From a virus, in the IMG/VR virus record IMGVR_UViG_3300047089_000152, positions 40,151-104,150 of that record: a DNA stretch of 64,000 bases; one strand, written 5' to 3'. The notes under the pieces are model-generated. The model did not search any database and was not told where the DNA came from. It worked only from the letters and a program-made list of their open reading frames with translations. Below, in pieces: positions 2,557-50,362 of this stretch; positions within the stretch are counted from its first letter, which is position 1, and each line of letters begins with the position of its first letter. A program made the position numbers and the translations under genes.

Positions 2557-2975
2557 TGAACGGTCAGACTGTCCCCCGGCCCCGGCCGTGCGCGTCGTGT
2601 CCGTACCGTAGAGACGTGCCGTCCGGTGTGTGGGCCGCGGAAGAATATGACAAGCTACCCCGCTACGACGGGGACACGGGTGAGCAGGCGATGGCCGGGG
2701 CGTTCGGCGTGTTCATGTGTCACCAGGCTGACGGGCACCTGTGTTCAGGTTGGGTAGCCGCCCACGACATGCAGCACAACCTGGCGATACGCATGGCCCG
2801 CGACGTGGACATGCCAGCGGTCCTGTCGTACACCACGGACGTGTCGGTGTTTGGTTCCGGTGCGGAAGCCGCGGCGCACGGCAAGGCCGACATCGAGACC
2901 CCGGGGCCGGAAGCTATGCGGACCGTGGAGAAGATCACCGTGGTACGCGGTAGGCGCGGGAAAGGGAAAGGATGA
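2556..2975 (+). CDS. DUF6283-like Cys/His-rich protein
   Basis: PCASCPYRRDVPSGVW...CHQ...CSGW motif. Confidence 0.7.
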   Translation: MNGQTVPRPRPCASCPYRRDVPSGVWAAEEYDKLPRYDGDTGEQAMAGAFGVFMCHQADGHLCSGWVAAHDMQHNLAIRMARDVDMPAVLSYTTDVSVFGSGAEAAAHGKADIETPGPEAMRTVEKITVVRGRRGKGKG

Positions 2976-3133
2976 GGCGGCCTAGGACGGAGCTGGAAGC
3001 GTACCGGTGTCCTGATTGCGGGTACACGGCGTTGATACAGCGGCTGGCTAGCCGGAGGAAGCTGACGGGGCATTTGAAGTGGTTGTGGTGTGTGCGGTGT
3101 GAGGTGCCCACGAATCATGTACTGGTCCCCTAG
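2972..3133 (+). CDS. 53-aa zinc-ribbon protein
   Basis: ATGA-coupled to the upstream gene; CPDCG...GHLKWLWCVRC...NH. Confidence 0.6.
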   Translation: MRRPRTELEAYRCPDCGYTALIQRLASRRKLTGHLKWLWCVRCEVPTNHVLVP

Positions 3134-3145
3134 CCTGGACGGTTG

Positions 3146-3154
3146 TGGTACGCT
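3146..3154 (+). promoter_or_regulatory. extended -10 promoter upstream of a pentamer mini-array
   Basis: TGGTACGCT, the same motif found before other mini-arrays and leaderless genes. Confidence 0.6.
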
Positions 3155-3169
3155 GTGGGTACAGCAAAC

Positions 3170-3303
3170 GGACCGGAAGGGAAAGGCTGGGCGCGGCAGG
3201 CATCGCAGCGGCCGGGATAGCAGCGGATCGGAGCGGCAGGACAGGATTGGCAGGGCACGGCTGGGCTAGGTGTGGCTGGGCTGGGAACGGAATGGATTGG
3301 ACA
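3170..3303 (+). ncRNA. GGH-NN pentamer mini-array (2 units), putative guide RNA
   Basis: 13 pentamers, GGCAG-GACA delimiter at 3235, then 12 more pentamers. Confidence 0.75.
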
Positions 3304-3370
3304 CTAGCCGCACCGCATGCTACAGTAGAGGTATAGTCAACGGACGAGGGCATGAAAGGAACAACGCACC

Positions 3371-4036
3371 ATGCCACCACGCAAGACCACCACAGGCGGA
3401 CCAGTCCAGCTCACCAGGCTGGCAGAAGAAGTCGCCCAAATCCACATCGCCGGGGCTACGCCACTTATTATTCATAAATGGTCGGAAAAGGCGCTCAACC
3501 AGATGCGGATCGCCCAGTCCGGGGCAATTAAGCCGCCCCGCGAACCCAAGAACGCCGAAGAAAACGCCCACGCGGCAACATACTGGGTCGACGTCGCCGA
3601 GACGATCCCCGGCATCCCCAGCGTCTCATTCAAGGCCGCCATGGTCGGAGCCTGCCGGTTCTTCGACGGCCTCCCCATGACGACAGCAAAATTGCTGTTC
3701 TTCGTCGACGGGGTCGTCAGCGAAGCCAAGGGCGACGCGCCAGCACGCGACCTGCTCGTCCCGATTATCTCCGGCCCTGGGGAAATGCGGGAAGACACCC
3801 CGCGCAACGACAACGGAAACCCGGACCTCCGGTACAGGAATCAGTTCTTCCCGTGGAAAGCCGTACTCAACGTGCGGTTCATGCCCGCGAAGATCGCCCC
3901 CGAATCCGTCATCGCGCTAGCTGACGCCGCCGGTCGTGGCGGTGTCGGAGAATGGCGTCCATCCGCACCGAAAAGCGCGACTGGCACATACGGCCAGTTT
4001 CGTGTCATCACCCGGAAGGAATGGGAGTCGGCCTAA
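3371..4036 (+). CDS. stand-alone Cas7/RAMP-like protein, putative guide-RNA-binding filament
   Basis: N-terminal strand IAGATPLIIH, GIPSVSFKAAM (cf. RAMP IPxSSxKG helix), C-terminal glycine-rich loop GRGGVGEWRP...GTYGQFRV; flanked by repeat arrays. Confidence 0.7.
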   Translation: MPPRKTTTGGPVQLTRLAEEVAQIHIAGATPLIIHKWSEKALNQMRIAQSGAIKPPREPKNAEENAHAATYWVDVAETIPGIPSVSFKAAMVGACRFFDGLPMTTAKLLFFVDGVVSEAKGDAPARDLLVPIISGPGEMREDTPRNDNGNPDLRYRNQFFPWKAVLNVRFMPAKIAPESVIALADAAGRGGVGEWRPSAPKSATGTYGQFRVITRKEWESA

Positions 4037-4037
4037 A

Positions 4038-4595
4038 ATGGCGACCATCACCGTCGAACAGCAGTGGGCGTTCAAATCGGGTGCGCGTGTCCCGGGTGGC
4101 GTCCACGCCGAGGATGTGGTGCGTGAGAAGGAACAGATGGAAGACCACCTGGGCCGCCTCGCCACCACGGAGGAAGCCGCGGAAATGGTCCTCCGCTGGC
4201 CTACCAAGTACAAGGCGCACCGGGCGTTCGCACCGGCAACCGAGAAAGAAGCACTCCACGAAGCAGTGGTACGCGGTGTTCGGAGCGCCTGGAGTTCCGT
4301 GATTCAGGTCGACGTCGAAATCACCGAGGTCACCAACCGGATTTCCGGTGATATCGAGATCGCAACCAGGCGTGTCGACGCACCCGAAGTGAGATGGTTT
4401 CACGCCGTGCCAGCACGCGTCGGCGACACGCAACGAGTTTATGACTCGTTGCCGAATATCGCAGCCGATGCTGACAAGGAAGCGGCGCTGTCCGAAGATC
4501 TCGCCACGCAAGCACGCAACTTCTCCGCAAAAGTAGCCAGCGTCACTGGCGAGCTGGCGCGGTTGCACAAGTTGCGCAGCACCGCCGGAAATTAG
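4038..4595 (+). CDS. partner protein of the Cas7-like gene, function unknown
   Basis: ATG 1 nt after the upstream stop; predicted helical; sits directly before the main array. Confidence 0.7.
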   Translation: MATITVEQQWAFKSGARVPGGVHAEDVVREKEQMEDHLGRLATTEEAAEMVLRWPTKYKAHRAFAPATEKEALHEAVVRGVRSAWSSVIQVDVEITEVTNRISGDIEIATRRVDAPEVRWFHAVPARVGDTQRVYDSLPNIAADADKEAALSEDLATQARNFSAKVASVTGELARLHKLRSTAGN

Positions 4596-4598
4596 ACC

Positions 4599-4636
4599 AC
4601 CAGGTTCCGGCCGGGGAAACTCGGCCGGAACCTGGT
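4599..4636 (+). other. 17-bp stem with GAAA tetraloop at the 5' end of the array (processing, stability or terminator hairpin)
   Basis: ACCAGGTTCCGGCCGGG-GAAA-CTCGGCCGGAACCTGGT. Confidence 0.8.
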
Positions 4637-4644
4637 CGGTAAGG

Positions 4645-5923
4645 GGAGTGGAGGGGCAGGGACTGTCGTGGCAAGGAACGGCAGGGCACGGAGTGGATTG
4701 GCAGGATAGGCTCGGCGCGGCCAGGCGGGGAGCGTTTCGGAGTGGCATGGATTGGCTGGGACTGGCAGTATCGGATCGCAGTGGTCAGGGTAGGCAAGGC
4801 CCGGCCAGGCGGGGCTCGGTATGGCCTGCACTGGCGGGGAACGCAATGGAGTGGCAGGACCGGTGTGGAATGGCTGGGACGGGAACGGCGCGGTAGGGAA
4901 TGGAGTGGCAGGAACGGTGGGGCCGGGCGCGGCGCGGCTAGGCTCGGCGCGGACGGGCATGGATTGGCTGGGCAGGACAGGATCGGAGAGCAGGGGGCTG
5001 GCGCGGCATGGCACGGAGAGGCAGGAGAGGAACGGTCGGGACAGGAGCGGCAAGGAGCGCACCGGCAGGCAGCGGCAGGGAATGGCATGGAACGGACTGG
5101 ATTGGCAGGACAGGACCGGCATGGCCAGGAGGGGCATGTCCTGGAATGGAATGGCAGGAATGGCTGGGTACGGCGGGGCCGGGCGAGCATTGGACAGGAC
5201 CGGCAGTCGCGGAAGGGCTCGGCAGGGACCGGATTGCAGCGGCGAGGATGGGCTAGGCAGGAGCGGAACGGCAGGGCATGGCCTGGATCGGAGCGGCTGG
5301 GCAGGATAGGCATGGATCGGCCTGGGTAGGCAAGGAGGGGCTGGGACGGGACCGGATTGGCAGGGCAGCAGTGGAGAGGCAAGCCGTGCAATGGCGGGGC
5401 GGGGCGTGGCATGGACTGGACCGGCAGGACTGGACTGGACTGGATTGGAGAGCAGGGCAGTGGCAGGGATCGTAGGGGTTCGGACGGGCAGGTTAGGCTT
5501 GGACGGGCTAGGCGTGGCATGGGCCGGCAAGGAACGGCTCGGAGCGGCAGGGATTGGCACGGCTCGGAGTGGCAGGACCGGACGGGTACGACGTGGCGTG
5601 GCTGGCATTGGCAAGGACTGGCAGGAGTGGATTGGCAGGGCCGGGCTTGGCATGGCGTGGCTGGGAATGGCGTGGCAGGACAGGTGGGGCTTGGCGGGCC
5701 GGGGATCGGCACGGATGGGCATGGCATGGCCCGGTAGGGCATGGCAGCATTGGACTGGACCGGACCGGCAAGGCTTGGCTTGGCTGGGATCGGATGGGAA
5801 CGGCAGGAGCGGAGCGGACTGTCGTGGCATGGCATGGCCTGGCGTGGCGCGGATCGGACGGGCAGGATAGGTCGGGCGTGGAATGGAACGGACGGGCTGG
5901 GCATGGAACGGCAGGATAGGAGT
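4645..5923 (+). repeat. main GGH-NN pentamer array, about 21 units, putative multi-guide precursor RNA
   Basis: strict 5-nt periodicity; GGCAG+4-nt delimiters at 4700, 4764, 4853, 4907, 4971, 5020, 5104, 5153, 5202, 5256, 5300, 5364, 5423, 5487, 5571, 5620, 5674, 5743, 5802, 5861, 5910; all spacings are 5n+4. Confidence 0.92.
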
Positions 5924-5937
5924 GACCCGCAGGGCTA

Positions 5938-5966
5938 CTGTCGGGGTGGGCCGCGTGCCCCGGCAG
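5938..5966 (+). terminator. hairpin at the 3' end of the array
   Basis: CTGTCGGGGT...GCCCCGGCAG inverted repeat. Confidence 0.5.
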
Positions 5967-5980
5967 AAGTTCGGCGGTGG

Positions 5981-6133
5981 ATGATCTTGTGCTCGTGCGG
6001 CCATCCTGCGGTCGAGCATGACCTGAACCGTTCGGAGACTAAGCGAACAGTTTGCCTGACCACCGAACGGACTACGAAATGTCCGTGCGTGCTATATTCA
6101 CCAGACCTTCGTGATACACTAGAGGTACAATGA
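5981..6133 (+). CDS. small Cys/His zinc-binding protein
   Basis: MILCSCGHPAVEH...C...CPC. Confidence 0.55.
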   Translation: MILCSCGHPAVEHDLNRSETKRTVCLTTERTTKCPCVLYSPDLRDTLEVQ

Positions 6134-50279: not shown

Positions 50280-50288
50280 TGGTACACT
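50280..50288 (+). promoter_or_regulatory. extended -10 promoter of a mini-array
   Basis: TGGTACACT(GTAGGTAC), identical to positions 8-24. Confidence 0.7.
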
Positions 50289-50303: not shown

Positions 50304-50362
50304 GGATAGGAGCGGCAGGGCTTGGCCTGGAGAGGATCGGCTGGGATTGGATTGGCAGGCTT
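50304..50362 (+). ncRNA. GGH-NN mini-array (1 unit)
   Basis: 10 pentamers + GGCAG-GCTT. Confidence 0.78.

Follow-up and report, generated by a model that had tools for sequence, protein, structure and literature searches.

A probable two-guide vrRNA mini-array upstream of the vipr gene in a high-GC soil phage

We analyzed a 64,000-nucleotide stretch of a 104-kb phage genome, hereafter the window, with attention to the mini-array at positions 3170–3303, which lies upstream of a gene for a Cas7-like protein. This gene, vipr (3371–4036, plus strand), encodes a 221-residue RAMP protein that matches phrog_4652. The AlphaFold2 model of the protein had a mean pLDDT of 88.6, and the PDB matches listed by Foldseek were Csm, Cmr, type VII and type IV CRISPR effector complexes or RAMP subunits, with a best E-value of 1e-5. 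A profile of 50 Vipr homologs returned a single PDB match, 36pp, the “SUSP1 Vipr protein” (36pp_D, E-value 1.5e-6), and the alignment covers the G-loop, GVG(D/E)WRP, and the RYR segment of the thumb that precedes it. About 600 homologs were found in metagenomes. Homologs of 38–47% identity are present in Mycobacterium phages (Saal and others) and in Gordonia phages, and a close homolog, P0006, is 93% identical and is encoded on an 8.7-kb JGI contig.

Just past the vipr stop codon begins a 185-residue ORF (4038–4595, plus strand), which we denote as a putative vipr accessory gene (vap) from locus architecture only; no Pfam or PHROG family was found for its product. A 15-bp hairpin (4599–4636, plus strand) separates vap from the main array (4645–5913, plus strand), which consists of 21 guides of 8–17 pentamers, each closed by GGCA, and lies 1.3 kb downstream of the mini-array. 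Two long ORFs run through the main array on the minus strand, at 4543–5904 (453 residues) and 4592–6019 (475 residues); we do not consider these to be genes, because the C-rich strand is poor in stop codons. Lone guide cassettes with the same pentamer grammar occur elsewhere in the genome, at 6985, 22599, 39352, 46426 and 50304, and in four of these a hairpin follows the GGCAGG motif. On the other side, just upstream of the locus, lies a gene for a DUF6283 protein (2556–2975; Pfam E-value 2e-31; phrog_18249), followed by a 53-residue ORF resembling a zinc ribbon (2972–3133).

VIPR is a CRISPR-related, RNA-guided DNA silencer that was described in 2026 and characterized in E. coli and Pseudomonas phages (bioRxiv 10.64898/2026.04.26.720920 and companion papers). 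A RAMP protein of the Vipr type has one RRM core, a loop rich in glycine and a thumb. A VIPR locus contains the gene for the RAMP protein Vipr, an accessory vap gene and guide RNAs, termed vrRNAs, of 9–16 pentamers (10.64898/2026.04.26.720920). Within each pentamer the GGY scaffold is protein-bound and the NN dinucleotide pairs with double-stranded DNA, with one target base skipped per unit, and the skipped base is usually the wobble position of a codon (10.64898/2026.04.26.720920). In Escherichia phage SUSP1, one vrRNA lies upstream of vipr and three lie downstream, and some VIPR types carry “staggered” arrays in which neighboring guides overlap by one base (10.64898/2026.04.26.720920, fig. 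S18 legend).

A dynamic-programming parse in a 5-nt register resolved 3170–3303 into two in-phase runs of 13 pentamers each, of the form GG-H-NN, with a 4-nt GGCA step between them. Unit 1 (3170–3234, plus strand) reads GGACC GGAAG GGAAA GGCTG GGCGC GGCAG GCATC GCAGC GGCCG GGATA GCAGC GGATC GGAGC, that is, seven GGA, three GGC and three GCA scaffolds, and specifies the target GCNGANGCNTANCGNGCNGANCTNGCNCANTTNCTNGG. Its 3′ end is the canonical GGCA/GG step, in which GGCA (3235–3238, plus strand) serves as punctuation and shifts the register by one base, as between the guides of staggered VIPR arrays. Unit 2 (3239–3303, plus strand) has a GG scaffold in all 13 pentamers and specifies TGNAANATNGTNCANCANACNTANCANGTNCTNAANTG. 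The 3′ end of unit 2 is atypical: the sequence over 3294–3310 has GGATT GGACA C in place of GGATT GGCA/GG, whereas GGCAGG ends every other guide that we inspected, in the main array and in all five lone cassettes. This parse reproduced the coordinates, the unit boundaries and the decoded strings given for 3170–3303 in a preliminary description of the DNA, which had been made from the letters alone.

Across the mini-array, G starts all 26 units and GG starts 23 of them. At the third scaffold position, A occurs in 13 units, C in nine and T in one; the remaining three units are those with GCA scaffolds, all in unit 1 (3/13, compared with 14/238, or 6%, in the main array). The NN bases vary between units. 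The periodicity stands out at the scale of the window: 100-nt windows starting at 3161–3231 rank within the top 40 of about 6,400 tested for period-5 G-power, and nearly all of the rest of the top 40 fall in the main array, at about 4740–5760.

Three other readings of the segment were rejected. ORFs overlap the mini-array at 3090–3269, at 3145–3336 and, on the minus strand, at 3048–3380, but the 5-nt period is independent of reading frame; they are side effects of a composition rich in G and poor in stop codons. A CRISPR array, in which direct repeats measure about 24–40 nt and are spaced by unique sequences, was dismissed, since the only periodic units are of 5 nt, no repeat-spacer units and no Rfam CRISPR-DR match are present, and the sole Cas-like gene is the lone RAMP gene. 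Nor does the segment appear to be a structured RNA: no stable fold was found (z of −0.23) and no Rfam family matched. An RNA that is neither folded nor assignable to an Rfam family is as expected for a guide coated by protein.

A promoter-like box precedes the mini-array (3146–3170, plus strand) and comprises an extended −10 element, TGgTACGCT, followed by GGTACAGCAAACG; its promoter function is putative. A second such box, with TGCTACAGT ... GGTATAGTCAACG, precedes vipr (3318–3342, plus strand). The shared motif TACNNTNNNGGTANANNNAACG, an extended −10 of the form TGnTACnnT with a conserved downstream box, occurs at seven sites in the window (716, 3149, 3321, 6115, 50283, 54093 and 57385), compared with 0.53 expected by chance. 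Copies with zero mismatches are located before unit 1 (3149), before vipr (3321) and before a ParB-like gene (6115), and a copy with two mismatches at 50283 lies directly 5′ of the lone guide at 50304. We consider TACNNTNNNGGTANANNNAACG to be a phage-specific, promoter-like motif, and we infer that the two mini-array guides have an independent promoter. No terminator was found between unit 2 and the second box, and transcription may therefore continue into vipr. Fragments of the phage, but no more than fragments, were found in two public DNA sequencing runs, one from rhizosphere and one from soil, and no RNA run was listed as matching it; the contigs found leave 2996–3491 uncovered.

The GGCA step is shared by the mini-array, the 21-guide main array and the arrays of Saal, Gordonia phage UmaThurman and the IMG/VR locus L001. 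Arrays of GGC/GGT-NN units with GGCA steps stand beside the Vipr homolog in Saal, UmaThurman and two IMG/VR contigs, and in Saal they lie upstream of the gene. In Mycobacterium phage Saal, the guide array (L003:4598–4820) is unannotated and is situated between gp50 and gp51, the latter being the Vipr homolog. In UmaThurman, the array (L004:5617–5927) is annotated as a hypothetical protein gene, gp40, and the Vipr homolog is gp39. The neighboring Vipr homolog, together with the GGCA-stepped arrays shared with the loci of its relatives, is the basis on which we assign 3170–3303 to a VIPR of the staggered type. We conclude, with a probability of roughly 0.85, that 3170–3303 belongs to a phage VIPR system as its upstream vrRNA mini-array and encodes two guide RNAs, each made up of 13 pentamers.

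The locus resembles staggered VIPR systems (10.64898/2026.04.26.720920) in having a Vipr RAMP gene with a putative accessory gene, flanking GG-x-NN arrays and guides that abut through GGCA/GG with no separate repeat or tail. It differs from them in its scaffold, a mixture of GGA and GGC with some GCA in place of GGY, and in its split layout: two guides form an upstream cassette that has a promoter-like box to itself, 21 guides form the downstream array, and further lone guides are scattered in the genome. The comparison to the type II VIPR of SUSP1 (vipr, vap1 and vrRNA1–4; PDB 36pp) shows a homologous Vipr protein, the same placement of vrRNA upstream of vipr and array downstream, a repeat number within the range of 9–16 (13 in each mini-array unit) and a skipped base that falls on the codon wobble position. 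However, SUSP1 vrRNAs carry a conserved 3′ tail of about 40 nt with a pseudoknot and a strict GGY scaffold, whereas the guides described here have no tail and no predicted structure; the G-loop Asp is replaced by Glu, and the probable host is actinobacterial and not enterobacterial. Class 1 CRISPR systems (types I, III, IV and VII) share the more general principle of a Cas7-fold protein that polymerizes on a guide RNA at fixed periodicity, with thumbs interrupting the pairing. Their period is 6 nt with five pairing bases, in contrast to 5 nt with two pairing bases here, and this locus contains no repeat-spacer units, no cas1, cas2, cas5 or cas6 and no nuclease genes.

The substituted residue lies in the G-loop sequence GVGEWRP (Glu194; window 3950–3955), at the position equivalent to Asp177 of SUSP1 Vipr, which reads scaffold base G1 according to the VIPR companion literature. 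Asp occupies this position in 47 of 50 aligned homologs, and Glu is found only in this Vipr and in its 93% identical twin, P0006. From this comparison of sequences, the replacement of Asp by Glu may be connected with scaffold specificity, given that this phage uses GGA, GGC and GCA scaffolds, as opposed to GGC and GGT in Saal, UmaThurman and L001.

We propose that the extended −10 box (about 3146–3154) probably drives transcription of the mini-array and that the GGCA/GG step probably marks where the transcript is cut or delimited. One Vipr protomer would occupy each GG-H scaffold, so that both variable bases of the unit stay free, as has been shown for SUSP1 and would hold here by homology. 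The 13 dinucleotides would then pair with a 38-bp site in double-stranded DNA, skipping each third base, and binding at this site would silence transcription of a competing element. Several points weigh against this model: transcription, processing and Vipr loading are steps that we infer, A is as frequent as C at the third scaffold position whereas the SUSP1 pocket excludes purines, no convincing target match was obtained, and the putative vap is of no recognizable family.

To decode the guides, the last two bases of each pentamer were reverse complemented to give target dinucleotides. Unit 1 yields the pattern GC.GA.GC.TA.CG.GC.GA.CT.GC.CA.TT.CT.GG, which can be read as A-(E/D)-A-Y-R-A-(D/E)-L-A-(Q/H)-(F/L)-L-G, and unit 2 yields TG.AA.AT.GT.CA.CA.AC.TA.CA.GT.CT.AA.TG, for which the string proposed earlier, W-K-I-V-Q-Q-T-Y-Q-V-L-N-W, is one of the allowed readings. 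We compared six strand and phase hypotheses by likelihood, using the codon dinucleotide frequencies of the phage itself. A guide antisense to codon positions 1 and 2 came out first for each of the two units and for the guides of the main array taken together (−9.5 bits, compared with −20.6 for sense and between −35 and −93 for the remaining phases), although the power per single guide is low. The decoding already used in the preliminary description, two bases per codon with the wobble base skipped, is the published one-nucleotide-skip rule of VIPR and is also the best-supported phase here. The DNA target scans described below were agnostic to strand and frame.

Unit 1 has no target in the genome that encodes it. 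The best match in the 104-kb genome was 17 of 26 bases, which is at chance level and below the mean of shuffled guides, and self-targeting by vrRNAs has likewise not been observed in published systems (10.64898/2026.04.26.720920). Scanning of four other loci that carry vipr, those of Saal, UmaThurman, L001 and L002, as possible targets in rival VIPR systems gave a best score of 17/26. When unit 1 was written out with best-guess codons and compared with the phage collection by blastn, noise alone was returned, and megablast and tblastn searches of the window against the same collection found no close relative.

The decoded string of unit 1 had been likened to a helix in the N-terminal SAM-like domain of XerC/XerD and phage integrases, with a rival prophage integrase or a host Xer protein as the suggested target. 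Such a guide would be aimed at the core-binding motif of a tyrosine recombinase, in a rival prophage, in a satellite or in the host as XerC/D, and silencing would block the excision or integration of the rival. The full 26-base pattern, searched for as an exact match, gave 0 matches in IMG/VR, in GTDB representative genome contigs and in JGI metagenomes. This pattern search had been offered both as the check on the integrase idea, with an absence of hits counting against it, and as a possible way to identify the host; no host could be named from the matches obtained by any of our searches.

We therefore considered partial matches, for which the core was defined as nine units, AYRA(D/E)LA(Q/H)F, or 18 preselected bases. 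At least 120 GTDB matches to the core were obtained, and the first 120 listed were classed by BLAST to Pfam-verified exemplars. Tyrosine recombinases with the motif in frame inside Phage_int_SAM_1 accounted for 34 of these 120 and matched 18–23 of 26 bases; GFO/IDH/MocA oxidoreductases accounted for 65 (21–25 of 26), and the remaining 21 belonged to other proteins (18–24 of 26). In IMG/VR, units 3–11 of unit 1 matched two sequences, both of them XerC/D-type recombinases with the core in frame inside Phage_int_SAM_1 (L240, 20/26; L241, 21/26). Units 1–9 gave 15 matches in the same collection, comprising a family of 145-residue phage proteins at 21/26 and assorted others, with no integrase, and units 5–13 gave two chance matches.

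The likeness of unit 1 to the N-terminal helix of XerC/D is thus genuine, but it is confined to the core. Among the 120 listed matches, the recombinases are at chance over the eight non-core bases and average about 20/26; nine of the 34 reach the 80% level of the VIPR papers, with a best of 23/26 and an Actinomycetes MAG recombinase at 22/26. A recombinase target has a precedent in SUSP1, whose vrRNAs target and silence a satellite recombinase gene (10.64898/2026.10.15.759431). The phage would also not strike an integrase of its own, as the lack of an integrase reported for the window extends to the whole 104-kb genome, which contains no tyrosine recombinase. Even so, these observations support the integrase proposal only in part. 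The oxidoreductases match better, the full pattern has no match in the three collections, and the one match above chance in related phages lies in an orphan gene; therefore the decoded motif does not identify an integrase. No integrase is present among the three sites found with up to three mismatches in 401 sampled Actinomycetota genomes (one site was found with a control), and no match with up to three mismatches was found in 15 related phage records, made up of five sister contigs and ten larger relatives. We consider a recombinase to be a decidedly unlikely target of unit 1.

The oxidoreductases provide the best matches found anywhere. Among the 120 listed matches, theirs run along the whole guide, and the six top ones score 25/26, for example that in L125, ADAYRAELAQFLR. 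In this gene (L125:3994–4998) and at 64 other loci listed, the region that matches unit 1, at up to 25/26, encodes a C-terminal helix, RF(A/G)DAYRAELA(H/Q)FLR, of GFO/IDH/MocA proteins resembling inositol dehydrogenase. Two of the three Actinomycetota sites are also oxidoreductases, one of them at 24/26, and the third is an unrelated ORF of no family. A guide against such a gene, of the myo-inositol dehydrogenase type, could act on the host or on a rival element. The L125 gene, however, is in a chromosomal inositol-catabolism cluster (with a PfkB kinase and a Cgl0159-like protein) and not in a mobile element, most of the matches come from Chloroflexota, Verrucomicrobiota and Proteobacteria, outside the probable actinobacterial host range, and no such gene with the motif was found in IMG/VR. 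By a rough estimate, about one coincidence of 12 of 13 codons is expected in 596 Gb of genomes for a helix rich in Ala, Glu, Arg and Leu. Chance is therefore an adequate explanation, and the match is probably a coincidence; an oxidoreductase gene as the intended target of unit 1 appears highly improbable.

The terminase gene was used to find sister phages, and five contigs (240 kb) were scanned whole. The best match to unit 1 scored 21/26 and is in frame (ADAYRAEIRRVLG) in a 131-residue orphan ORF on the IMG/VR contig G004 (L100:265–657, minus strand). This ORF lies 1.5 kb downstream of an ortholog (phrog_29861) of the HTH gene in the window, in the same variable early region in which this phage has its VIPR locus. 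Unit 1 could accordingly be aimed at a small early gene of sister phages and discriminate against co-infecting relatives. The seven units at the 3′ side of the vrRNA match perfectly, which is the end from which the R-loop grows in SUSP1, as reported in the VIPR companion literature. A score of 21 was reached by 2 of 300 guide shuffles in the 240 kb of sister-phage DNA (shuffle p of about 0.007), and z was 6.3 within a 3.1-kb neighborhood that was chosen after seeing the match. However, the agreement of 81% is barely at the published threshold. The three homologs of the ORF found among 5.8 billion proteins match no better and do not conserve the site, no other guide of this phage matches that region, and the context is incomplete in that the G004 contig ends 264 bases past the ORF. 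On balance, we regard this orphan gene as an unlikely target.

For unit 2, the best matches in the phage's own genome and in the sister genomes were at most 17/26. The similarity that had been noted between its decoded string and LVQQSWDAKDW of the nearby HTH gene comes to 14/26, below the chance maximum of 17 in the genome itself, and is not supported. Units 2–10 of the guide had no match in IMG/VR and 50 matches in metagenomes, which are low-GC, retroelement-like and attributable to chance; units 6–13 had eight chance matches in IMG/VR. No match with up to three mismatches was found in the ten larger relatives. There is thus no target for unit 2 above chance in any collection searched. For both guides, the natural target lies outside the phage itself and could not be identified in the public collections searched.

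The three GCA scaffolds of unit 1 and the missing GGCA/GG closure of unit 2 mean that either unit could be impaired or decaying. One or both units might accordingly be non-functional remnants, or act as decoys or regulators instead of targeting guides, as solo and decoy vrRNAs are known in the VIPR literature. The proportion of GCA scaffolds in unit 1, which exceeds that of the main array, the aberrant end of unit 2 and the lack of a clear target for either unit are consistent with this possibility. Conversely, the 5-nt phase is perfect over the 13 pentamers of both units, a promoter-like box of their own precedes them, the main array tolerates GCA units along its whole length, and a missing database target is common among vrRNAs, being absent for 19 of 63 type III guides (10.64898/2026.04.26.720920). 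We consider loss or change of guide function to be quite improbable.

Comparison of these matches indicates how far a decoded guide can be interpreted. Integrases, sugar oxidoreductases and an orphan phage gene can all be fitted to unit 1, and target calls therefore need full-length matches and proper null models; a 13-codon decoded helix of common residues is too little to name a target family. The suggestion that unit 1 is a wobble-proof guide against the XerC/D core-binding motif of a rival element or of the host, or else polices an allelic orphan gene at the locus of the VIPR cassette, is doubtful. Earlier publications already cover the reading rule, the architecture and the proposal that recombinases are targeted. 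If recombinase targeting were true here, silencing of recombinases could be a general VIPR strategy that reaches actinobacterial-type soil phages. The locus extends the split VIPR layout, in which vipr is preceded by guides and followed by an array, to a soil phage of high GC content and 104 kb that has relatives infecting Mycobacterium and Gordonia; the scaffold of this VIPR system, GGA/GGC, is tolerant of purines.
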